Positions 1 through 43,608 of a stretch of 64,000 nt of DNA are shown here, in pieces (positions within the stretch are counted from its first letter, which is position 1; each line of letters starts with the position of its first letter). Source of the stretch: a virus (taxonomy: Duplodnaviria; Heunggongvirae; Uroviricota; Caudoviricetes). The notes beneath the pieces are model-generated. The model was not told where the DNA came from and ran no database searches. It saw only the letters and a program-made list of their open reading frames with translations. Where the stretch lies: IMG/VR virus record IMGVR_UViG_2537561935_000012. One strand, 5' to 3'. The position numbers and the translations under genes are program-made.

Positions 1-470
1 CTGTAGCGTTCCCATGCTTCCAGTCGGCTGTGGTCCTCATCCGTTGCCATATTCAGCCTTACTGCACGCTCTAGTAGTTGAATGACTGATTCAGCATCAG
101 CAAGAAGTCTGGCTTTCTGATTTTCTACCTGCTGCTGTAATTCCTCTTCCGTATAAATACGTTTAATAACTGCGCCATCCTTAAACATCCAGTTACCAGA
201 AATGTCGGCACGTCGGTTAGCAGTAATATCCGGCACTTCAACAACACTTAATCCATCCGGTCTGATAGCTGTTACATCCTTTTCCACATAGCGGATGATG
301 TTATCTTTGTCATACGCTAATTTTATCGTGTCATCCTGGAAGTTCTTTTGTTCCTCATACCAGTTTTTACCGTCTTCTGTAAAAAACCAGATGACATCAA
401 AATGTTTCGTCAGCTGGTATTGCTCAACTGTTTTTGGATTACCCGCTGTTATATTGATCAAATGCTGCAT
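1..470 (-). CDS. Tail-fibre assembly protein (U/U'-like), 3'-truncated by window edge
   Basis: Minus-strand ORF from ATG at 470-468 running off the window start. Translated N-terminus [40 protein letters not shown] matches the conserved N-terminus of Mu/P1/lambda tail-fibre assembly proteins. Absent from ORF track because it has no stop in the window. Confidence 0.6.
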
Positions 471-474
471 AAAT

Positions 475-2328
475 TTAAACCTGTGCCACGTTATACCATG
501 TTCCATTAATCTGTTTCTGAACCGGCCTGTAATATACACCTCCAATATTATCGGCAGAATTCGAGCCGATATCCTGGACTATAATGCCAGTATAAACGCA
601 GCCTGATGGTGCCTGATGCGTCCATGTCGAGGTGTTATTTGCTGGTTTATATGTAGATGCTCCACCAAGTCGCATGTCTCTTACATAACGAGAATCAAAG
701 TTACCGTAATCCGAGGGGTTAACACGCCCTGTAATATTTATGGTTTTATTACTTTGAATGCTGCCGGAGACAAAGCGCATAACATGAACGTTATTAGCAT
801 AAACGTCCAGATTACCGTCGCCATTTTGTTTAAATCCCGTGTCATTATCACCCAAAACAATCGAGTTACCGCCAAGAGCACTGGATGTTCCGATACCCAA
901 TGCACCATTCAATTGACCGCCAGATAATGACAATGCCCCAACCTCAGCAGCAGTCGGTTTAATGTGCGAACTGTAAATTACATATACAGTTCCATCTGTC
1001 AGGCCTGTTGGTTTATTCGCTGTATAAGTTGGTGATGTATGAATTTGTACAGTTGCATCCTTTGTATAATCCCACTGGATATTAACACCTGTGGCGTAAT
1101 TACCTATTTCTACATAAATGTCATAGGTATCACCGGATGTATTCACCCATGCAAAATTAGTAAATCCAACCGAGGTCCGTCGCCATAATGCACCAGTAAT
1201 ACCTTTTGGATTTCCATTTCCTGCACGCAGAACCAGCTCAGAGATGCCTGCTTGCTGCGGGGAGCCAACGTTATACCCTGCGCCACCAATCAGGTTTATG
1301 TAAACCACGGAACTGGCTTGTGGCATTGTTACAGTTGCCAGCTTGAACCATCCAGCACCACCACTAAAAGACATTGTTGTGGAGTTGATCGTGCCTATAG
1401 ACCGTGGGTTAAGTTCAATATCTTTAGAACCATCAAACGAGACGCCGTTGATAGTACATGCTGTCTGCAACTTGGTCGCTGTCGCTGCATTACCGGTAGT
1501 GTCTTGATTACCTTTTGTATTCACACCAGGCAAATCTATATCGGCTGAACCATCAAAGGATACACCACCTATGTTTATTGAACTTGCTAATTTCGTTGCT
1601 GTTGCTGCATTTCCTGAAAGGCTTGAAACAAACTGATGTGAGCAGTAATAACCACGTCCATTTTTAAAATCCAGAATGGTTTGAGTATTTGTACTTTCTG
1701 CTACTGGATCTGTGGCCCCCCACTTATAGGTGGCTTGACCAACGGTATAGTCAGTAGTTGGAACAATTACGTTCAAGCCCTCCTCAGCAAATATCTTGAT
1801 AGGAAATGCTCTGGCTTCAACGTAAAATACACTACACAAATCGTCATCTTTCACACTTGAAATAATCGAGTGTATAGCTCGCTCAGCAGTAGAATATATT
1901 GAGAAAAAACCAGCCGCATATGAACCGCGATCAGACCAACCGCCAGGCATAACAAACCCATTAAATTCACAATTATTCATGGCGTATCCGCCAGCTGAGG
2001 AATAAGTAGTTATCACAACTCGTGAGGCTAATTCATCGGTACTGCCTCCAGATCGGCGAAAGACTATAGGATACCACTTACCGCTTACTGCATTTGCAGG
2101 CGCTGAAAAAGTGTATTTTCGCATCCCTTTTTTATTGTCTATTTCGCTTTTGCTGTAAACGTCCAGATCTTTAGGAGTCAACGTAATGTCAGCCGAACCA
2201 TCGAACCTGACGCCATTAATGTTTATGGCTGTTTTCAATTTCGTCGCGGTGTCGGCGTTCCCTGTCAGTGCCCCGGTGATCCCGCCGTTGAAAGTCTGGC
2301 GCGCACTCCATGTGTTAGCCGTGCTCAA
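475..2328 (-). CDS. Tail-fibre variable C-terminal segment (Sv'-like), apparently lacking its own initiation codon
   Basis: 617-aa ORF with repeated NG(V)xFDGSxDIxL fibre motifs and Gly/Thr/Ser-rich beta-rich composition. Track start is a TTG immediately after the cix-like site; consistent with a segment expressed only after inversion fuses it to a constant fibre N-terminus outside the window. Confidence 0.7.
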
Positions 2329-2357
2329 CAGGGGGATCTTTTCACCGCTGGTACCGA

Positions 2358-2387
2358 GTTCTCTTAAACCAAGGTTTAGGATTGAAA
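2358..2387. promoter_or_regulatory. cix-like crossover site for the Cin invertase
   Basis: Sequence TTCTCTTAAACCAAGGTTTAGGATTGAAAT with the AAACCAAGGTTT core typical of hix/gix/cix sites, overlapping the 3' end of cin and abutting the variable fibre ORF. Confidence 0.5.
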
Positions 2388-2936
2388 TGATGACGCCGGA
2401 AACTTCTTATAAAGAGTGGAAACAGCCACATCATAGATGATTGCAACCTGCTTACGGGGGATGCCCTTCTCCAGCAATCGCCGCATTTGCTGCCATGTTT
2501 CTTCCTGGTATTTAGGCCGACGCCCACCTATTCGACCTTCTGCGCGAGCTGCATCAAGTCCAGCTCGTGTACGTTCAACAATAAGTTCACGTTCCATTTC
2601 TGCCAGCGCCCCCATTACGTGAAAGAAAAAGCGCCCCATTGGTGTACTGGTGTCGATGGAGTCAGTGAGACTCCGGAAGTTAATGCCTCTGTCACGCAGC
2701 TCTTCCACCAGCACAACTAAGTGACGCATGCTGCGCCCAAGACGGTCTAACTTCCATACGACCAGGGGATCACCTCTGGAAAGCATACGGAGTACCTTTT
2801 TTAACCCAGGGCGCTCAGCCTTTTTGCCGCTCGCCTTGTCCTCAAAAATTAGCTCACATCCTGCGCTTTCAAGAGCGTTTCGTTGTAAAGCAGTGTTTTG
2901 TTCATTTGTTGATACGCGTACATAGCCAATTAGCAT
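2376..2936 (-). CDS. cin: Serine-recombinase DNA invertase (Cin/Gin/Hin family)
   Basis: 186 aa; N-terminal MLIGYVRVSTNEQ with catalytic serine at position 10, resolvase domain and C-terminal HTH; ATG start; sits next to tail-fibre variable segment. Confidence 0.9.
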   Translation of the reverse strand: MLIGYVRVSTNEQNTALQRNALESAGCELIFEDKASGKKAERPGLKKVLRMLSRGDPLVVWKLDRLGRSMRHLVVLVEELRDRGINFRSLTDSIDTSTPMGRFFFHVMGALAEMERELIVERTRAGLDAARAEGRIGGRRPKYQEETWQQMRRLLEKGIPRKQVAIIYDVAVSTLYKKFPASSFQS

Positions 2937-2994
2937 ATTTTCTGCTCACCATAGTTATTCATAGCAAGCTGCGGATTTTAATTAACAGAAACCA

Positions 2995-3345
2995 GTGTGT
3001 GTGGAAATCACAAAGTGCATACCGTGCCCCAATGATGTTTTATTGAAAAGCGGGGTTACTTTAATGTTTGATTTAACCATATTTTTTATAACCATCCTTG
3101 GCGGAGTGCATTCGTTTCTGAATGGGGTTCGTGAAAAACGTTACGAAGCGTCATGCAGGCAATTGATGGCCGAGTGTATTGCTGCCGTACTTGCAGGCTT
3201 TATTGGCATGTATTTCGCGGAATATAAGGGCATGGATGAAAGTCTTCAGAATTGCGTGACTATTATTTGCAGCATCAATAACAGGCTCATTCTTGAAAAG
3301 TTACAAAGGATTATCGATTCGTACCTCAATAGAAATGCCTCTTAA
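2995..3345 (+). CDS. Small membrane protein, holin-like (two predicted TM helices)
   Basis: ORF with hydrophobic stretches FDLTIFFITILGGV and CIAAVLAGFIGMYFA upstream of the lysis genes; start codon uncertain. Confidence 0.35.
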   Translation: MCVEITKCIPCPNDVLLKSGVTLMFDLTIFFITILGGVHSFLNGVREKRYEASCRQLMAECIAAVLAGFIGMYFAEYKGMDESLQNCVTIICSINNRLILEKLQRIIDSYLNRNAS

Positions 3346-10054: not shown

Positions 10055-10361
10055 AATCGCAGCGCCATTAGGCGGAGATGCCATTATCGAATTTGATGAT
10101 AATGAAGAAGTTTCCGGGCGTTTAAGCATTATCTCCGGTGACATTACCGAGGACATGATCGCTGAAGCCATAGCTGGGGCAAATCCCAATAGCTATATGG
10201 GATTCGTTAACACCCTTGATGCTCCCGCAAGTGATGTTCTCCGAACGCTGCATCTTTACGCTGGCTGGTTTGTTGATTGGCCAGCAGTAGAGGGTGGCGA
10301 TGAGGACGACGACGATGACGACGATGATTTTGGGGATCATGTAGACCAGATCGTATATTGA
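10044..10361 (+). CDS. iddB: IddB-like small acidic protein (poly-Asp tail)
   Basis: 105 aa with C-terminal DEDDDDDDDD run; last gene of operon before terminator. Confidence 0.45.
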   Translation: MQIKIAAPLGGDAIIEFDDNEEVSGRLSIISGDITEDMIAEAIAGANPNSYMGFVNTLDAPASDVLRTLHLYAGWFVDWPAVEGGDEDDDDDDDDFGDHVDQIVY

Positions 10362-10363
10362 AG

Positions 10364-10392
10364 AAATCCCGCCAATCGGCGGGATTTTTTTT
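10364..10392. terminator. Bidirectional rho-independent terminator
   Basis: Hairpin AAATCCCGCC-AATC-GGCGGGATTT followed by T-run, between convergent iddB (+) and hxr (-). Confidence 0.65.
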
Positions 10393-11185: not shown

Positions 11186-11863
11186 TCACTCCACTACAAA
11201 CCAGTCACATGCCAGTAAGTCGCATACAGAAGGCACCCACGGAACAACTACACCTTGTGCATTTTTTAAGGCGAAATAAGCACCATACGGAACGAGGTCG
11301 CCGGGGAAATATCCCTTAATGGCTTCCATTCGTGCCGGGTACTGTCCTTCAGGAACCAGCCAGCAGAATTGGTTTTCGCCGTTCCACCCGCGTCGAGCAA
11401 CTTTCTTGCCATCCTTCAGCCACATCAGCGCGTCAGAAAAGTCGGCTGCTTCAAGGTCGATTTCTTCTTGTGTGGTAATGATGCCACTGGCAGCAATAGT
11501 TACGTCCCTGGCTGTAATGAATGTCACCCCATTGTGACCTTCAATACTGAGCGATACCCCATTTTCGAAGAAGTCGTTAGTCCGACTAAAGCCTTCTTCA
11601 AATGTTTTTTCTGGTGAATAGGACAGAGATCCGTCCTCATAAGCGACCAGATATCCGCCAATTTCTGGTCGGTGTTTTTGCAAAAACATTTTATCAACAT
11701 GGACTTTTACCCCTTCTGGCTCAACGACTTCGATGTTGCAAAAAAGGACCACATCCATTAGGGCGATAATTTCGATATCTTTGATTTTTGAGGCGCGAAC
11801 TGTTTTATGGCTTTTGTATTTTGGAAGTGCCGTCAAAAGCTCTTTCGTTGTCATGTTATTCAT
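11186..11863 (-). CDS. Protein with C-terminal DUF2829 (Tad2-like) domain and an uncharacterised N-terminal domain
   Basis: ATG at 11863 with AGAGGAAAG RBS. C-terminal about 85 aa FSDALMWLKDGKKVARRGWNGENQFCWLVPEG ... DWFVVE fit the F-x-x-AL-x-x-LK-x-GKKV-x-R-x-GW pattern I associate with DUF2829/Tad2 sponge proteins. Confidence 0.5.
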   Translation of the reverse strand: MNNMTTKELLTALPKYKSHKTVRASKIKDIEIIALMDVVLFCNIEVVEPEGVKVHVDKMFLQKHRPEIGGYLVAYEDGSLSYSPEKTFEEGFSRTNDFFENGVSLSIEGHNGVTFITARDVTIAASGIITTQEEIDLEAADFSDALMWLKDGKKVARRGWNGENQFCWLVPEGQYPARMEAIKGYFPGDLVPYGAYFALKNAQGVVVPWVPSVCDLLACDWFVVE

Positions 11864-12060
11864 AGTCTTTCCTCTGCTTAAAACCTGATGTATTGCGCCT
11901 TCAGGTGGGTCAGGAATGTTTTCCCACCAGCGAAAGCAATATCTCGGGGTGTTCTTTTCGTGAAAAGCGCGTGCCATTGCCAACTTTGGCGTTTGTTTGC
12001 GAGTTCGTGCTTTTGTCGGCGTCTGGACCACCGCTTTTCTTTCAGTCGTTTTTTACACAT

Positions 12061-23892: not shown

Positions 23893-25197
23893 CTATATAA
23901 ACTTAGATACAATATCGTGAATCTGTTGTAGCGGGATATCTTCCATCTCATTCTTAATAAGAGAGCGGTTAGATGCTGTCAGTGAAGGCCATTTTGTTTT
24001 CCAGGCTAGATATGCTCGCCATGAGTAGCCTGTTTCGTAAGGTTTATTCATATAAGTCATTGAGTGTTCAACCGCATGTATGTATTTTTTCTCAAAATTG
24101 GTTCCTTTTACTTCAAATAAACTACCGAAATAAATAAGCCATTTTGCCAGGTGTTCATACTGCTCCCATGCGCCAGGCTTTTTAGTAAGCTCTATTTTTT
24201 TATCTATTATATTACAAAAAACATTTAATACATTTTCATTATTCCAGCTATATCCAGATGATGAAATGGAGGAAATGATATGATAAAAAGAATCCTCTAG
24301 CTTCAAGAACTCTATTTTATACTCTCTTCCGTTTTTTATTACCGATTTGATTGAGTGCCTCAATTTGTCTTTTATTTTTTTTGCTTCTGGAATTTTATCG
24401 TTAAGTTTTCTAAAGAAATCAGATACCTCTGTTTTATCTATAACCCTAACCCCATAGCAGGAAAAATAGTAATCTTTAATAGGTTGCAATAGTTCCCCTC
24501 GGGAAACAAGGAAAATATTGGAGGACATTACGTTGTCCCGTGAAAATACCTTATATTCATTTATAATAGCCTTTAGGTTCGCGTCACTTAGAGAATAGCC
24601 AAGGATAACAATAGTGTTTTCATGTAGAACTGTGCTTAGTTTATTAGAAAAGTAAGAATTACCATTTATAAATCTGAAATAATCCTCGCTAGTAACAACC
24701 ATGTCTGATGGGGAGTCTATAGAACCGTGAACATGGTAGACTTTAACCTCACAATTATATTTTGGAATTGGCAGGCCGGGGGTGATTGTACAAGTTCGAT
24801 TCTCTCCAGCCAGCTTTTCTGCTAACTTGTCATAATTTGTCGTAATTACTTTAAATGTGTTTTCTTTGAAAAAGTCTTGAATATATTCAATTGATGGATC
24901 AAGTTCGATTGAGGCTATGATTTTCTCAATCTCTTGGTAAATATTTTTCCCCGAAAGTATAAGTTTTAGTGCAATAACCTGAGCAGCTTCTTCAAGGCTA
25001 AGGTCTTTTGCTTTTCCATCAGGAAATAATTCCTCTTTGAGTGAGTCACCATCCTTCAATAAACCGCACAGTTGCTCCAATAAAGATTGCCAACTTGGGG
25101 CTTTATCATCAGAAACAGCCTTTGAAAATCCAGTGCCTGTAAGAAAGCACAGCCTATGTGTAGCCGCTGCATAGGCAATTTCTATATACTCGCTCAT
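23893..25197 (-). CDS. SIR2-like (NAD-dependent deacetylase/NADase fold) protein with uncharacterised C-terminal domain; candidate anti-phage defence effector
   Basis: 434 aa, ATG with GGAG RBS. N-terminal motifs CFLTGTGFS (GAGxS-like), VITTNYD and VYHVHGS in the order and spacing of SIR2-family defence proteins. DNA is markedly AT-rich (about one-third GC in a sampled stretch) compared with neighbours. Confidence 0.7.
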   Translation of the reverse strand: MSEYIEIAYAAATHRLCFLTGTGFSKAVSDDKAPSWQSLLEQLCGLLKDGDSLKEELFPDGKAKDLSLEEAAQVIALKLILSGKNIYQEIEKIIASIELDPSIEYIQDFFKENTFKVITTNYDKLAEKLAGENRTCTITPGLPIPKYNCEVKVYHVHGSIDSPSDMVVTSEDYFRFINGNSYFSNKLSTVLHENTIVILGYSLSDANLKAIINEYKVFSRDNVMSSNIFLVSRGELLQPIKDYYFSCYGVRVIDKTEVSDFFRKLNDKIPEAKKIKDKLRHSIKSVIKNGREYKIEFLKLEDSFYHIISSISSSGYSWNNENVLNVFCNIIDKKIELTKKPGAWEQYEHLAKWLIYFGSLFEVKGTNFEKKYIHAVEHSMTYMNKPYETGYSWRAYLAWKTKWPSLTASNRSLIKNEMEDIPLQQIHDIVSKFI

Positions 25198-37338: not shown

Positions 37339-38267
37339 ACTTCACCCTCGCTTGTATCGCCAGCATCCACCAGCGGCAATAAAGCCCTGGCCATCTTATG
37401 AACCAATAGTGCATCAATAATGCCAAGCGTATGCCCCGGCTTAATGTTTAATGCCGCCTCAAGGTGACACCTTTCCAGGCCACTTTTCTCGGCTTGTTTA
37501 TGATGATCTGGTGTAATAACGTCGCCCAAAACACGGCTAATTCTTTCTCGTAATTGCTGGGTGCCAGCACACTTGATCGCTGTATCGTGGAGACGGTTAA
37601 CCAGTTCGCGATAAACATGCGGCTTAATTCGGATACGTTCACCGGTGACGCCCTTTCCTGGTGCTGGCACCGAACTATCCGGAATATCCGGATAGTTGCC
37701 AGCCTCGTAAGCTACCCGCAGCCAGTGCATGAATGTTTCAGTGGACACACAACCACAGTCCACATCGATTTTCCCGCGTTGCTGTTCCAGCCATTGCCCA
37801 AAATCCAACCTGTAAGTCTTACTTTCAAGTTCATCACCATTGAACTCGACTTTCTGCGACGCTATGAGAGCTGATTCGTATTGTTCGCGAGTGACAACTG
37901 ACTGGTATTCATCGCTATCAAGGTCACCAATTGGAAGCTCAATCTCACAACAAAAATTGCGCCCAAAGAAAGTGTCTTTTTTGTGGTCTGAGCCAAAAGC
38001 AAAAGTCGCGCATGGTGCCATTAAATTGACACTGGGTAGGTAACAATAACTCATTCCATCAGGCCACCCGCCGCACTTAGGCAGTTCCTTCACTAACAAG
38101 TCGATAAACTTCATTTTTTTATCATCTTTGCAAGCCGCCAAAGCCATTTGGGCAAGTGCCAATACTTCATCTGCCGTATATCCAGCACCGTGACCATACA
38201 TTTCGATACGGGAAATAATCTCTGATATACGCTCTTCAGTGATTCTGGTCATTTCTTTTTGCGCCAT
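37335..38267 (-). CDS. Hypothetical protein
   Basis: 310-aa ORF, overlapping stop/start with neighbours. Confidence 0.45.
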   Translation of the reverse strand: MAQKEMTRITEERISEIISRIEMYGHGAGYTADEVLALAQMALAACKDDKKMKFIDLLVKELPKCGGWPDGMSYCYLPSVNLMAPCATFAFGSDHKKDTFFGRNFCCEIELPIGDLDSDEYQSVVTREQYESALIASQKVEFNGDELESKTYRLDFGQWLEQQRGKIDVDCGCVSTETFMHWLRVAYEAGNYPDIPDSSVPAPGKGVTGERIRIKPHVYRELVNRLHDTAIKCAGTQQLRERISRVLGDVITPDHHKQAEKSGLERCHLEAALNIKPGHTLGIIDALLVHKMARALLPLVDAGDTSEGEV

Positions 38268-38623
38268 TTCTTTTCACATTCCTTAGTCCATTTTTCAATG
38301 TTCATTTTGGCAATATCAGTCATTCCATCACCTAAGAAATACTTTCTCCGGTACGTCTTGCACTTAAACCACACTACAACAGCCACCAGCCAGAAAATAA
38401 AAGGCCATACAGCAATACCAACTCCAGCCGCGATAAAGCCCAATAGCCATAAATGAAGCTCTCCAACTTCTGTTTGCGGCAATATTCTTAAAGAATTAAG
38501 CAGCAGACTGAAGGAATAGTCGTATGCATTGGCGGTATAAGACATGCAATCCATATAATTAAAGTCATAGCCTGCGGCTGCCGCCCATAATGGGCGGTCA
38601 AGAAAATGTTTTAGTGTCATCAT
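38249..38623 (-). CDS. Hypothetical membrane protein
   Basis: 124 aa with Trp-rich TM segment and Lys-rich C-terminus. Confidence 0.4.
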   Translation of the reverse strand: MMTLKHFLDRPLWAAAAGYDFNYMDCMSYTANAYDYSFSLLLNSLRILPQTEVGELHLWLLGFIAAGVGIAVWPFIFWLVAVVVWFKCKTYRRKYFLGDGMTDIAKMNIEKWTKECEKKWRKKK

Positions 38624-38629
38624 ATAAAT

Positions 38630-39019
38630 TTAAGGTTCAGACCAGTTATCTTCAATAGCAATGCTTAATCTTTGTAGCCATTCTGCTAATTTCAGCATTG
38701 CTTCTCTTTCGCTTAAACCACGAGGAAAATCATCAAGCGAAATTGTTGGCTTGAAGCCCCCGTAATTATCTATTTCAACAGTCAGATTTTGCTCCAGCAC
38801 GGTATTCCTTACGCGGCTATTGTGCCGAAGCAAATATACTGAACGTGATTTATTGGTTTTATGGTCAAACTGATATTCGGTAAGTATCATCTGGCTTTTG
38901 CCATGACTATTACCTCTCCACATACTTACCTCACTTAATAAAACAACTCCATGCGTAGTTGATGATTTTTTCCCACGTAATATAAATCTGCACTCCGGCA
39001 GTAAAACCAAAGCCAACAA
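38630..39019 (-). CDS. Hypothetical protein
   Basis: 129-aa ORF; true start possibly internal. Confidence 0.35.
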   Translation of the reverse strand: MLALVLLPECRFILRGKKSSTTHGVVLLSEVSMWRGNSHGKSQMILTEYQFDHKTNKSRSVYLLRHNSRVRNTVLEQNLTVEIDNYGGFKPTISLDDFPRGLSEREAMLKLAEWLQRLSIAIEDNWSEP

Positions 39020-39101
39020 TTGCTGAAAAAATCAAAACATTTACTTTTGACATTATAAATTTTCTCTCGGTGTCGTAGGTGATAGCACCATAATTGATAA
39101 T

Positions 39102-39353
39102 TTAGTGAGTTAGCAGTTCCATTTTTTGGATGATTTCCGCATGAGCATCATCGTTATCAACACTTAACTCGTTTAATGCCTCTCGCACTACATCAACTTC
39201 TTCTGGTTGGAAGAAGTCATCTCGGTAGTCACCAAATAGAACCGAAACAAGCCTGCCACCAGCAACATCAAGATTGGCGCTAACAGGTGGCTCTTTACCA
39301 TCCTCAAATTCGACTACAAAAGTTAATTTTCCCATCGTTACCACCAGCGACAA
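39102..39353 (-). CDS. Small acidic hypothetical protein
   Basis: 83-aa ORF, strongly acidic. Confidence 0.35.
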   Translation of the reverse strand: MSLVVTMGKLTFVVEFEDGKEPPVSANLDVAGGRLVSVLFGDYRDDFFQPEEVDVVREALNELSVDNDDAHAEIIQKMELLTH

Positions 39354-39677
39354 ATTGAATACAAACCCAGTGCTGCCGCCATCACAATTCCTACCGTTGC
39401 GAATGCTTCAGGCCAGCTCATTATCTCACCTCCAGTCTCCATACCGCCTGACCAATCCGGCTGGCATGGGTATCTTTGGATACTGTTCCATCTTTAGCCA
39501 TCTCCATAAGAATTTTGCGCAAATCTGCCGAACGCCATTCTTCATCAGGAAATTCCTTCTCCATTGCCAACCGCAGATTCCAGGTTGCCATCCTGAATGG
39601 ATATTCCCCGCCGAGAGCTTTATCTTGCAGGGCAGCCCGGGAACGCATCACCTGCAAAACCTTCTCTTTTACATCCA

Positions 39678-40481
39678 TCATTTCGCCTCCTGCGGCGGTT
39701 CTGGTAGCGGCATCCAGTACAAGGCGTTCCCTAACCACGATAAAGTGCCGTCGCTCAACTCCACGTATTCCCCTTGTACCTGTCCTGCCATATACTCGCC
39801 GTGCTTTGAATAAATTAAAATCCAATCATCTTGAGCGGGCATTCGCTCACTACAGCTTATCCAACCATCCGGAGTTACCGGATAGTTGCCATTCACAAGG
39901 TCAGCTCGAACATATAGCGTGTCATCATGGTGCTGATTGTGGCTGCACCACGTTAATTCGCTTAACTCGCCATCTTCTGGCCATACTCCAGCTGTTTGCA
40001 GCCAGATATGGGCTGGCGCATCTTGGCAAGGTGTATTAACTGGCAACTTGTAAGTTTGGCTTACAGGTTGGCTACCCTGAAGCATGGCAGCGTGGCAGGC
40101 ATCCTCAACGTTCTTCACTGCATCTGCGCAGTAGTTATAGCGATTGCATTCCACTAATTTCTGCTTGAGGTTTTCAATTGCTAACTCGATTTCATCCGGC
40201 ACTACCGGCTCTGGTTGGATAGTGACGTTGGCAAAGGCAGCACGCAAACCGGCCTTAATTTCCTCTACTTCATCAGCGCCTAGCGATGAATCTGACAATG
40301 CGTGATGGAATGCGTAAGCCATGTCGTCGTTTACTGCAACCGGTTCTGCTTCCAGCGATGCCAGAGCAATTCGTGCCAGTTCTTCCGCTTCTTCTGCTGG
40401 CAGTACAACGTTGCTACCAGGTCCGTATGTTTCGCGCCACTGCTTGATTGTCAGCAGTCGCTCTTTGGTAATAGTGATCAT
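39678..40481 (-). CDS. Hypothetical protein with DUF551-like C-terminus
   Basis: 267 aa ending ...ALYWMPLPEPPQEAK, resembling the WxPLPxPP tail of DUF551 phage proteins. Confidence 0.4.
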   Translation of the reverse strand: MITITKERLLTIKQWRETYGPGSNVVLPAEEAEELARIALASLEAEPVAVNDDMAYAFHHALSDSSLGADEVEEIKAGLRAAFANVTIQPEPVVPDEIELAIENLKQKLVECNRYNYCADAVKNVEDACHAAMLQGSQPVSQTYKLPVNTPCQDAPAHIWLQTAGVWPEDGELSELTWCSHNQHHDDTLYVRADLVNGNYPVTPDGWISCSERMPAQDDWILIYSKHGEYMAGQVQGEYVELSDGTLSWLGNALYWMPLPEPPQEAK

Positions 40482-40993
40482 GCCGCGTTTCCTTCTTTCT
40501 TATTAACAATTACACCGTCATATATTTCATTAAGGTGCCCTCTCAACTCCATGCGCCTTAATGCAGATAACATGTAATCGCATTCAACCTGCTTATTTCC
40601 AGTAAATGGCTTATCGTCAGGATTACCCCAACAGCAATTACCCTTGGGCCACCCATGTACTTTCCGTACTCTTCCGTTAACAACGTGAAGTAATCCCCAG
40701 CCAGGTGGTAAATCCTCAACTGAAATAATTCCCGGCTCACTAATAAAGAATCGCCAGTCGCCCATTCCAAGAGATGGATTTTTACGAAAACGCTTTTTTC
40801 TATCTGCCAACAAGTCAGCACGAGAACACTTCGCCTCTATCAGGCATGATGCTGAATTTCTGAATCCCATAGCATCTGGCTGTTCTCCGGTACTGGTTAC
40901 AGCTATAAAGCGGTCATGAAAACAAACCTTGAACCCGTTGCGCTTAAGGAACTTATACGCAATCTGACAGAGTTCGCGGTGTGTTAACGCCAT
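40478..40993 (-). CDS. PD-(D/E)xK-fold nuclease-like protein
   Basis: Start ATG 40993 (AAGGAGAG RBS, overlaps upstream small ORF stop); motif QPD ... LIEAKCSRAD consistent with PD-x(n)-E-x-K. Confidence 0.4.
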   Translation of the reverse strand: MALTHRELCQIAYKFLKRNGFKVCFHDRFIAVTSTGEQPDAMGFRNSASCLIEAKCSRADLLADRKKRFRKNPSLGMGDWRFFISEPGIISVEDLPPGWGLLHVVNGRVRKVHGWPKGNCCWGNPDDKPFTGNKQVECDYMLSALRRMELRGHLNEIYDGVIVNKKEGNAA

Positions 40994-40994
40994 A

Positions 40995-41183
40995 TCACTC
41001 TCCTTTAGTGCGCAAGTGGTTTTTCCAGCGGTTTTGCGCCGCGCTGGGCTTTTTGCAAAAACCACAATCCATCATCCCGTAATATTTCATCAACCCCATC
41101 CGTCGGTTGCTGAGTCTCACCCACTGCCAGACGCCAGGAGCGTTTCTACGAACTAACAGAATCTTTGCTTTACGGTTTTTCAT
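40995..41183 (-). CDS. Small basic protein, paralogue 2 (MKNRKAK family)
   Basis: 62-aa ORF in track; shares N-terminal MKNRKAK and internal QNR-K motif with adjacent unlisted ORF. Confidence 0.35.
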   Translation of the reverse strand: MKNRKAKILLVRRNAPGVWQWVRLSNRRMGLMKYYGMMDCGFCKKPSAAQNRWKNHLRTKGE

Positions 41184-41191
41184 CTTACAGC

Positions 41192-41362
41192 GTACCCTTT
41201 CTTCCGCCTGTTCTGTGACGCAGTAGGCTTACGCTTTGCGGCAAAAGCCACCTGACCAAATGGATGGAGTACCGCTATCTTATGGTTGCTAATAACCAGC
41301 TCCACCACACGCACAGGTCGCTGTAAAAAAAGTCGTTTTGCCTTACGGTTTTTCATCGCTTT
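41192..41362 (-). CDS. Small basic protein, paralogue 1 (MKNRKAK family)
   Basis: About 56 aa, below the track length cut-off; ATG preceded by the same CTTTACGGTTTTTCAT context as paralogue 2. Confidence 0.3.
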
Positions 41363-41528
41363 GCTCTCCTGCGTCTCTTTGCTGCTCGTCGTGCCGCTGC
41401 AATACCGGTATGGCGGCGCTTTGGTGCCGGGATGATGTTGTCAGCCATCAGGACATACGGCTTTGCAATTAGCGCAGAAGCCCAAAAACGAGTCGGGTAC
41501 GGTAACAAGCCGATACATGCCACACGCA

Positions 41529-42149
41529 TTACTCACCTCCTTTGATGCGAATGCCAGCGGCGCGTGGCACATTAACTTCCACGATGCGCACAGTTGGTTT
41601 GTACATCTCAATCGCAGTCAGCCAGTCAGCGCCAGTCATGCGCTTTTCTGCATCGCCATTAGTCCACTTAACCGGTACACCAATAGCCTTCATCGCGATT
41701 TCTATTTCCCCGGCAATGGCGCTTTTTCCGCAACCAGTAAAACCAGATACAACGACCAGAACTTCACCTTTGGCTGGTTTTATTCCCCGCGCTTCCAGTT
41801 CTGCTATGCGCTTACTTCCATCCGAGATAACACCTTCGTAATACTCACGCTGCTCGTTGAGTTTTGATTTTGCCAACTCCAGTTGTTTTGTTAGTTCCGC
41901 AATACGGCAAACATCGTTGATACGCGTTTCCTCTAATGCGTTGATCTCATCCAGTAGTGCCAGCACGGTTTCTGGTCCGGCCAGAAATTTGAAGGCGTTG
42001 AGGGCATCAATATCAACACCGCTATCTTTAAGTTCCTGTTCGCTTATCAGAGCATCATCAACTGGCAACATTAACAGGCGTTCCATTGCCGGAATTGCAC
42101 GCTCTGCCGCCTCACGCAGTGCCTGATAGTCAATTGTCATTCTCGCCAT
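41529..42149 (-). CDS. Ead/Ea22-like prophage protein
   Basis: 206 aa with coiled-coil core and C-terminal Gly-rich nucleotide-binding-like segment typical of Ead/Ea22 family. Confidence 0.45.
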   Translation of the reverse strand: MARMTIDYQALREAAERAIPAMERLLMLPVDDALISEQELKDSGVDIDALNAFKFLAGPETVLALLDEINALEETRINDVCRIAELTKQLELAKSKLNEQREYYEGVISDGSKRIAELEARGIKPAKGEVLVVVSGFTGCGKSAIAGEIEIAMKAIGVPVKWTNGDAEKRMTGADWLTAIEMYKPTVRIVEVNVPRAAGIRIKGGE

Positions 42150-42781
42150 CCTTCACAGTTGTAATCACTACAGCCTTCAAAATCATATGGGCTGTACTGC
42201 CAGGTTATTTTTCCGCAATGCGGACAATTCCAACGCACCTTCCCGCTTCGCGACTTCTTTCTTCTGTTCTGCTCTTTCAACCAGTCAGGCATGACCAAAC
42301 CTGCGCCCTGAACCATTGTTCTGCGGTTAAAGTTATTGATATTGAACGTCCGACGCTTTGCTGCATCAGCAATGGAAAATGGCAACCAAACTATTCCTGG
42401 TTCGTTTTTGTTGGCGACGCTAAAGATGGTCGCTTTACTGAAGTCATCTGTTGGCAATCCACCGTGTTGAAGCCAGTAAACATCGTTGCCGTTCCAGCTA
42501 CCTTTTTTGTAGGCCACATACGCAGTGCAATCTGACTCAATCAGGCTTTCTGTGGGGATGTACTGGCAATCAACGTGCCACACAGCCATTGCATCCACGC
42601 TATCAGCGCAAACAGGCTGATCGATATCTCGTCCACAATTCCAGGCTTTTTGGGCTTCTTCCAGCGTGTAAACATGAGCGCGATCGATATCAGAACTGTA
42701 ACCATTGCCGTTATGGCAATGGAATGAGGCGTTATTACCCACAGTTTCACGCAAGCACATCATGTAAAAGCGGTTATTCAC
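42137..42781 (-). CDS. Hypothetical Cys-rich protein
   Basis: 214-aa ORF with CPHCG zinc-ribbon-like motif. Confidence 0.35.
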   Translation of the reverse strand: MNNRFYMMCLRETVGNNASFHCHNGNGYSSDIDRAHVYTLEEAQKAWNCGRDIDQPVCADSVDAMAVWHVDCQYIPTESLIESDCTAYVAYKKGSWNGNDVYWLQHGGLPTDDFSKATIFSVANKNEPGIVWLPFSIADAAKRRTFNINNFNRRTMVQGAGLVMPDWLKEQNRRKKSRSGKVRWNCPHCGKITWQYSPYDFEGCSDYNCEGWRE

Positions 42782-43058
42782 TGGTTGCCTCCGCTTCCCA
42801 CGTTTTCAGACTTTCACCACAGAACGGGCAAAATGAAACTCGAATAGGCGATTTAGAAAATTCACCAGACCGCAGCATGATCAGGTCTTGTGAATGAATT
42901 AATTCATGGTTATAGATTTTGTATTTCAGCAGACCTTTTCGCGTCGTGTATTCAGCGTCATGCTCCAGGGATTGTGCCAACGCCGCGCACGGTTCTATCT
43001 TGTTGCCATTAATTTGGCATTTTGACTCACTCACTGGTTGCCCCCTGAATACGCTCAA
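42774..43058 (-). CDS. Small zinc-ribbon protein
   Basis: 94 aa, C-terminal CPFCG motif. Confidence 0.3.
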   Translation of the reverse strand: MSVFRGQPVSESKCQINGNKIEPCAALAQSLEHDAEYTTRKGLLKYKIYNHELIHSQDLIMLRSGEFSKSPIRVSFCPFCGESLKTWEAEATSE

Positions 43059-43608
43059 ACTCTATTACCCACACCCAAGGATTAGCGTTCCAACTATCTT
43101 CGCCATAAATTGATTTCCATAGGCTACGGAAACCTGGGTAATGCTTATCGCCAATGAGGGTCGATTCTGTTGGTGCGCCCTCAGCCCTTGCATCGCATTC
43201 GCTGATATCGTTCAACCGCTCAACGCGCACGTTGGTAATTTCCAGAAGAATGCGCGATGCCCAGCGCGGCATGTGAATTGATGGCGTCCACTTTTCTGAT
43301 ACTGGTTTATTACAAACCTCGACCGGAACCCGGTGCGTTTGTTCTGTCCAGGAGTTACGCACGCTTGCGCGATAAACCAGCGTTGCGACGTCCGTCGCTT
43401 TGCCATGTACCCGGTAGGTTTCGCGAACCCAAATACGATCGCCCGGTTGACCATATGGACAATGCTTGGCAAGCAACTCTGCGGCCACTGCCCGTCCATA
43501 GAATTTTTCTTCAACAATCCTGCGAGTCTGTGTTTTATTCCCGCCAAGAATTGCCCGGACCATCTCATCGTTAAAAATCATGCCGCGCTCTTTCACTTCG
43601 CCTTTCAT
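43027..43608 (-). CDS. ASCH-domain-like protein
   Basis: 193 aa with N-terminal RAILGGNKTQTRR motif resembling ASCH-domain signature. Confidence 0.4.
   Translation of the reverse strand: MKGEVKERGMIFNDEMVRAILGGNKTQTRRIVEEKFYGRAVAAELLAKHCPYGQPGDRIWVRETYRVHGKATDVATLVYRASVRNSWTEQTHRVPVEVCNKPVSEKWTPSIHMPRWASRILLEITNVRVERLNDISECDARAEGAPTESTLIGDKHYPGFRSLWKSIYGEDSWNANPWVWVIEFERIQGATSE

Follow-up and report, generated by a model that had tools for sequence, protein, structure and literature searches.

The P1-type tail-fibre cassette has been described as a constant fibre part (Sc), variable arms, chaperones and an invertase (PMC13172314, PMC6906374). This C-segment is a hypervariable region among P1-like phage-plasmids (PMC9603915, PMC6906374). 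Here we describe a further copy of the cassette, found at the start of a 64,000-nt stretch of Caudoviricetes DNA (hereafter the window). Positions 1-2936 of the window almost certainly belong to a P1-like (IncY) plasmid prophage and represent the cin-proximal half of its invertible C-segment. The system itself is already known: it is the textbook Cin/cix switch of the P1 C-segment, a reading that is correct but ordinary. With phage P1 (NC_005856) the locus shares the gene order R-Sc-cixR-[Sv-U / U'-Sv']-cixL-cin.

Source molecule and collinearity with P1

The first base of the window is also the first base of contig AQCL01000073.1 (94,029 bp), which belongs to the assembly GCA_000354615.2 of Escherichia coli MP021552.7. 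Window positions 1-357 are an identical copy of the final 357 nt of this contig (13763-14119 of the stretch called L017 below), and because of this exact terminal repeat the contig was treated as a circle. It is a circular plasmid of approximately 93.7 kb that was linearised at an arbitrary point inside a chaperone gene and carries a terminal overlap. The sequence "upstream" of the window is consequently to be found at the opposite end of this contig (contig 79,911-94,029; L017), and the truncation at the window start is only a product of where the circle was cut. L017 carries the genes for gp16, R, a 1046-aa S protein whose gene spans an inverted cixR, and a 177-aa U, followed on the minus strand by a chaperone gene that the contig end cuts short, leaving its 3' part. 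The preliminary description of this DNA had placed the expressed arm and the constant N-terminus of the fibre beyond the window start, and it was at this far contig end that they were located (R, Sc, cixR, Sv and U). A single orientation of the C-segment was present in the source assembly.

Throughout its length the window is collinear with the reversed sequence of phage P1, with 94-99% identity. The shared order begins with cin, lydC/A/B, hdf and darA and continues via lox to the upfB region. The best matches to the window in PLSDB and INPHARED were 98.5-99.7% identical, and an exact copy of the window sequence was not found in either database. The closest records were IncY P1-like plasmids from E. 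coli, E. albertii and Salmonella.

Several other differences from P1 were observed in the window. A gene for a 434-aa SIR2_2 protein (23893-25197, minus strand; PF13289, 2e-23; PADLOC PDC-S25, 6e-24; ThsA-like SIR2, 9e-18) occupies the exact position of EcoP1 res/mod in P1. This position is a known hot spot, and the protein is a candidate defence cargo consisting of one gene. With the replacement of res and mod, the IS5 that P1 has in mod is absent as well. Beside ssb, a stretch of approximately 0.7 kb without an equivalent in P1 encodes a 281-aa protein (11186-12031, minus strand; PF11195, 6e-23) whose C-terminal domain is Tad2-like (Thoeris anti-defence 2). At 10359-10391, approximately 1.7 kb of P1 sequence, comprising IS1 and isaB, is missing. 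At 37710-43553, approximately 5.8 kb of non-P1 DNA stands in place of approximately 640 bp of P1 around pmgT, where P1-like plasmids are known to vary; the ORFs of this DNA are small and on the minus strand, and include DUF551 and Ead/Ea22-like members and several without a family match.

Crossover sites and the two fibre arms

The 26-bp site cixL (TTCTCTTAAACCAAGGTTTAGGATTG) lies at 2359-2384 on the plus strand and is identical to cixL of P1. It occurred once in the 64-kb window, against 0 occurrences expected from shuffled sequences. The stop codon of cin (TAA, 2376-2378) sits in the outer half-site of cixL, as the preliminary description had noted when it reported a cix-like site overlapping this stop. 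The exchange point is the central AA of cixL at 2371/2372, the equivalent of the position at which the P1 crossover is annotated, and in the junction alignment the sequence switches directly after ...AAACCAAGGT. The second site, cixR (TTCTCTTAAACCAAGGTATTGGATAA; L017 11571-11596), is identical to P1 cixR and inverted relative to cixL. On the circular contig the two sites are separated by 4,550 bp, and they share the central AA/TT. Extension of the sequence upstream in search of a second, inverted cix had been put forward with the preliminary description as a check on the invertible arm. On the source contig such a copy does lie within a few kb, and an intact full-length fibre gene on the strand of the window arm was not found there. 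A scan of the reconstructed locus allowing up to 3 mismatches found these two cix sites only, and the rest of the window contained one further, weak match with 3 mismatches (at 38708).

The site near cin is part of a 199-bp inverted-repeat arm (2184-2382), which encodes the first ~64-66 residues common to both variable segments. It matches L017 11573-11771 in inverted orientation with 97.5% identity, and the same 199-bp inverted repeat was present in the loci L002 and L003. A recombinational enhancer, putatively Fis-dependent, is located at 2847-2918 in the 5' part of cin and is identical at 72/72 positions to the annotated element of P1 (NC_005856). Ahead of R, the late promoter LPs likewise shows 100% identity to its P1 counterpart.

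The silent variable tail-fibre segment (475-2371, minus strand) comprises approximately 632 codons and lacks a start codon of its own. The ORF finder reported a 617-aa ORF with a TTG start (475-2328). The preliminary description had taken this ORF, with TTG only, as the extent of the segment; the ORF and the lack of a proper start are both real, but the true unit is longer. The fibre frame stays open further upstream, straight through cix, so the real coding unit extends from the crossover at 2371/2372, where the segment begins, to 475, and the TTG is of no consequence as a start. With respect to cin, the segment is located downstream, in a different frame and separated by a stop codon. The arm in the window is silent because it has no start codon and stands behind this stop, out of frame with cin. 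The occurrence of cixR, the expressed arm and Sc at the far contig end likewise bears out the earlier view that the window holds the non-expressed arm.

The silent segment matched tail-fibre PHROGs (7e-154). It contains three GNAxTATKL...INGVxFDGSxDI repeats and a C-terminal half resembling gpH of P2, and 631 of its 632 residues agree with the C-terminal part of the 1159-aa fibre protein of NZ_CP074369.1. The 617-aa TTG ORF was ruled out as an independent gene, both by its open frame through cix and its out-of-frame position behind the cin stop, and by its identity to part of this longer fibre. The similarity of the silent fibre to P1 is restricted to the initial ~64 residues, which the inverted repeat encodes, a single internal repeat and a weak match at the C-terminus.

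A tail-fibre assembly chaperone gene follows the silent segment on the minus strand. Its 5' 470 nt (1-470), or 156 of 175 codons, are in the window, and its final 58 nt are at the far end of the circular contig. The product was recognised as Caudo_TAP (2.4e-26) and phrog_136 (8.7e-69). It had been called a U'-like assembly gene in the preliminary description. A chaperone is indeed present, and in the position of U', but its amino acid identity is 76.6% to U of P1 versus 57.6% to U', which makes it a homologue of U. Judged by homology, the silent arm is best described as a divergent replacement of the Sv/U arm of P1, not of Sv'/U'.

On the other side of the segment, the reading frame of S (1046 aa) traverses cixR without interruption and consists of approximately 527 codons of Sc and approximately 519 of Sv. 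At the amino acid level, the expressed arm shares 93.6% identity with P1 Sv', and the chaperone that accompanies it shares 83.6% with U'. The two Caudo_TAP chaperone genes are arranged tail to tail in the segment. As the expressed arm is Sv'-like and the silent chaperone U-like, the plasmid was sequenced in a state resembling C(-) of P1. An inversion was made in silico between the central dinucleotides of cixL and cixR. It yielded an intact 1159-aa fibre, of which 1158 residues were identical to the protein annotated as 'phage tail protein' in NZ_CP074369.1.

Sc contained one additional 222-nt copy of the 'b' repeat element of P1 (L017 11003-11583). It is approximately 527 codons long, versus approximately 453 in P1, and the extra repeat was judged by the +222 offset between two blast segments.

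Orientation in relatives, the predicted switch and Cin

The arm found next to cin in the window is not always found there. In NZ_CP074369.1 the same arm (99.7% nucleotide identity) has the opposite orientation and is fused to Sc. Among PLSDB plasmids it adjoins cin in five (CP063732.1 and four others), as in the window, and is fused to Sc in at least two. A second P1-like lineage presented a similar picture, the same U gene adjoining cin in 5 loci and Sc in 4. Each complete locus of that lineage has exactly two identical cix sites, and the segments measure 4.26-6.9 kb. The presence of both orientations among relatives offers natural evidence, drawn from sequence comparison, that the segment flips. 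In the second lineage, stretches of 0.6-1.8 kb without a called gene were observed between the silent fibre ORF and cin, inside both cix sites (L010 11945-13739; L011 13121-13727; L014 13102-13708; L016 4867-6511). Such stretches probably represent silent arms that have degenerated or whose frame has been disrupted.

The anatomy of the locus, both of its sites, the continuity of the frame and the two orientations in natural relatives are matters of observation; inversion in MP021552.7 itself and the receptor specificity of the fibre are what we infer. The mechanistic detail of such inversion is established for the Din-family invertases of P1 and Mu. By this scheme, the late promoter LPs would drive an operon R - S - U, in which S combines a constant 5' part (Sc), located outside the segment, with either of two alternative 3' parts that lie within it. 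These 3' parts are oppositely oriented, and each has a separate assembly chaperone gene behind it. Cin, made from its own promoter, would act together with host Fis bound to the enhancer inside cin (a presumed dependence) and synapse the two inverted 26-bp cix sites. It would then cut at the central AA dinucleotide and rotate the strands, and the 4.55-kb segment would be inverted. As the frame is kept through cix in both orientations, the arm facing Sc would be expressed and the arm facing cin silent. In the state of the isolate, the expressed fibre is Sc with a P1-Sv'-like tip (1046 aa), served by a U'-like chaperone, and the window arm, with its 632 codons, P2-like tip and chaperone, is silent. 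Progeny phage would be expected to fall into two adsorption or host-range classes, each carrying one of the two fibre tips.

The recombinase gene cin (2376-2936, minus strand) encodes a serine DNA invertase of 186 aa. An N-terminal catalytic Resolvase domain (PF00239, 4e-50) and a C-terminal HTH_7 domain (PF02796, 2e-18) were identified. Residues 1-182 aligned with the Gin structures 3UJ3/4M6F (E 5.8e-88). The nucleophile is Ser9 (MLIGYVRVS), which aligned to residue 9 of Gin, Gin's nucleophile position; the catalytic Ser10 given earlier is corrected accordingly. The region upstream of cin (2937-3060, minus strand) matches the annotated P1cin/P2cin promoters of P1 by position, so promoter function is predicted here, and several positions in the alignment with P1 were diverged. 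A lydC-like holin gene begins nearby, divergently from cin.

Cin is identical to Cin of P1 in 185 of 186 residues (99.5%), and the one difference, T57P (codon 57, window 2766-2768), led us to consider whether this isolate carries a frozen copy of the switch. According to this explanation, the private substitution would inactivate or cripple Cin, and the plasmid would be locked on the Sv'-like fibre, barring complementation in trans by an invertase of the host, for example e14 Pin. Residue 57 opens the strand that runs towards the catalytic D64/R65/R68 cluster. It is Thr in Cin of P1, in Gin and in the 11 further Cin copies compared, and the exact protein with T57P was found on one contig only among the records (AQCL01000073.1). 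In the best 150 cluster representatives (the closest ones from 50%-identity clusters), column 57 contained T in 95, V in 27, C in 6, I in 4 and other residues in the remainder, with Pro in none. However, the position accepts T, V, C, I, A, E and Q and is not strictly invariant, and T57P may reflect an error of sequencing. Invertases of the Din family can substitute for one another, and complementation in trans by other members of the family is possible. A frozen switch was considered possible but unlikely. The joint claim, that T57P locks the prophage in the S'-expressing state and that the non-P1 silent arm gives a host range beyond S/S' of P1, appeared somewhat more doubtful still. We favour the reading of a P1-type switch carried by this plasmid with an ordinary two-site layout.

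A multiple-inversion system, with more than two sites and several fibre cassettes in the manner of p15B Min or of a true shufflon, was judged highly improbable. The preliminary description had spoken of a shufflon of the Mu G / P1 C type, a term that is also applied in PMC6906374, and the P1-related plasmid p15B does have a multi-site system. Nevertheless, the scan for cix sites returned two in the reconstructed locus (up to 3 mismatches), which ruled out a Min or shufflon architecture for this locus, and exactly two sites were found in 12/12 complete related loci. Features of an R64-type shufflon were not found at the locus: the recombinase is a serine invertase and not an Rci-type tyrosine recombinase acting on more than two sfx sites, and there are two sites only. 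"Shufflon" was loose wording for what is a two-site serine-invertase switch.

Equally little weight was given to the suggestion that the contig break reflects an assembly collapse from mixed orientations, which would make the local arrangement unreliable: short-read assemblies frequently break at invertible segments, but this break lies inside the chaperone gene, away from the 199-bp inverted repeats, the exact 357-nt end overlap fits an arbitrarily linearised circle, and the complete plasmids CP063732.1 and NZ_CP030784.2 show the identical arrangement. The overlap and the position of the break outside the repeats ruled out orientation heterogeneity as its cause.

Comparison with known switches and fibre modules

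The distal part of the silent fibre and its chaperone (window positions 1 to ~1390) are 85-88% identical at the nucleotide level to the H/G regions (gpH/gpG of P2, Peduovirus) of P2-like phages of E. coli and Yersinia. With gpH of these phages, the C-terminal ~315 aa of the silent arm share approximately 83% amino acid identity. On the basis of these similarities, the P2-like tip and its chaperone can be assigned to a familiar, horizontally exchanged module of fibre tip and chaperone. P2 has no inversion switch, whereas the module is embedded here as a silent cassette. It represents one more fibre allele circulating in the C-segment of P1-like phage-plasmids of E. coli and E. albertii, and is relevant to transduction host range, including the spread of resistance genes, and to engineered P1 delivery vectors.

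The plasmid p15B resembles the present one in being a P1-related plasmid prophage in which a Din-family invertase (Min) acts on 3' cassettes of a tail-fibre gene. It differs in having six crossover sites and many cassettes, compared with two sites and two cassettes here. The G-segment of Mu, with Gin and gix, has in common with the locus a serine invertase that is Fis-dependent (here by analogy), two inverted 26-bp sites, and a split fibre gene (Sc with Sv/Sv') accompanied by U/U' chaperones; Gin was aligned over 182 residues. In contrast, Mu has a transposable backbone and a distinct gix sequence, and the fibre arms described here are not Mu alleles.

P1 itself is the closest match. In addition to the gene order, cixL, cixR, the enhancer and LPs are identical, and Cin is 99.5% identical. 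Differences from P1 are found in the inverted repeats (199 bp here, 636 bp in P1), in the size of the segment (4.55 kb versus 4.26 kb) and in the arm equivalent to Sv/U, which is a longer mosaic fibre here (632 versus 534 codons). The extra 222-nt repeat of Sc, the T57P substitution in Cin and the C(-)-like orientation as sequenced also set the plasmid apart. The T57P allele and the allele of the silent arm are variants inside a known system and not a new mechanism, and the only new detail relative to that system is the allele of the variable arm.
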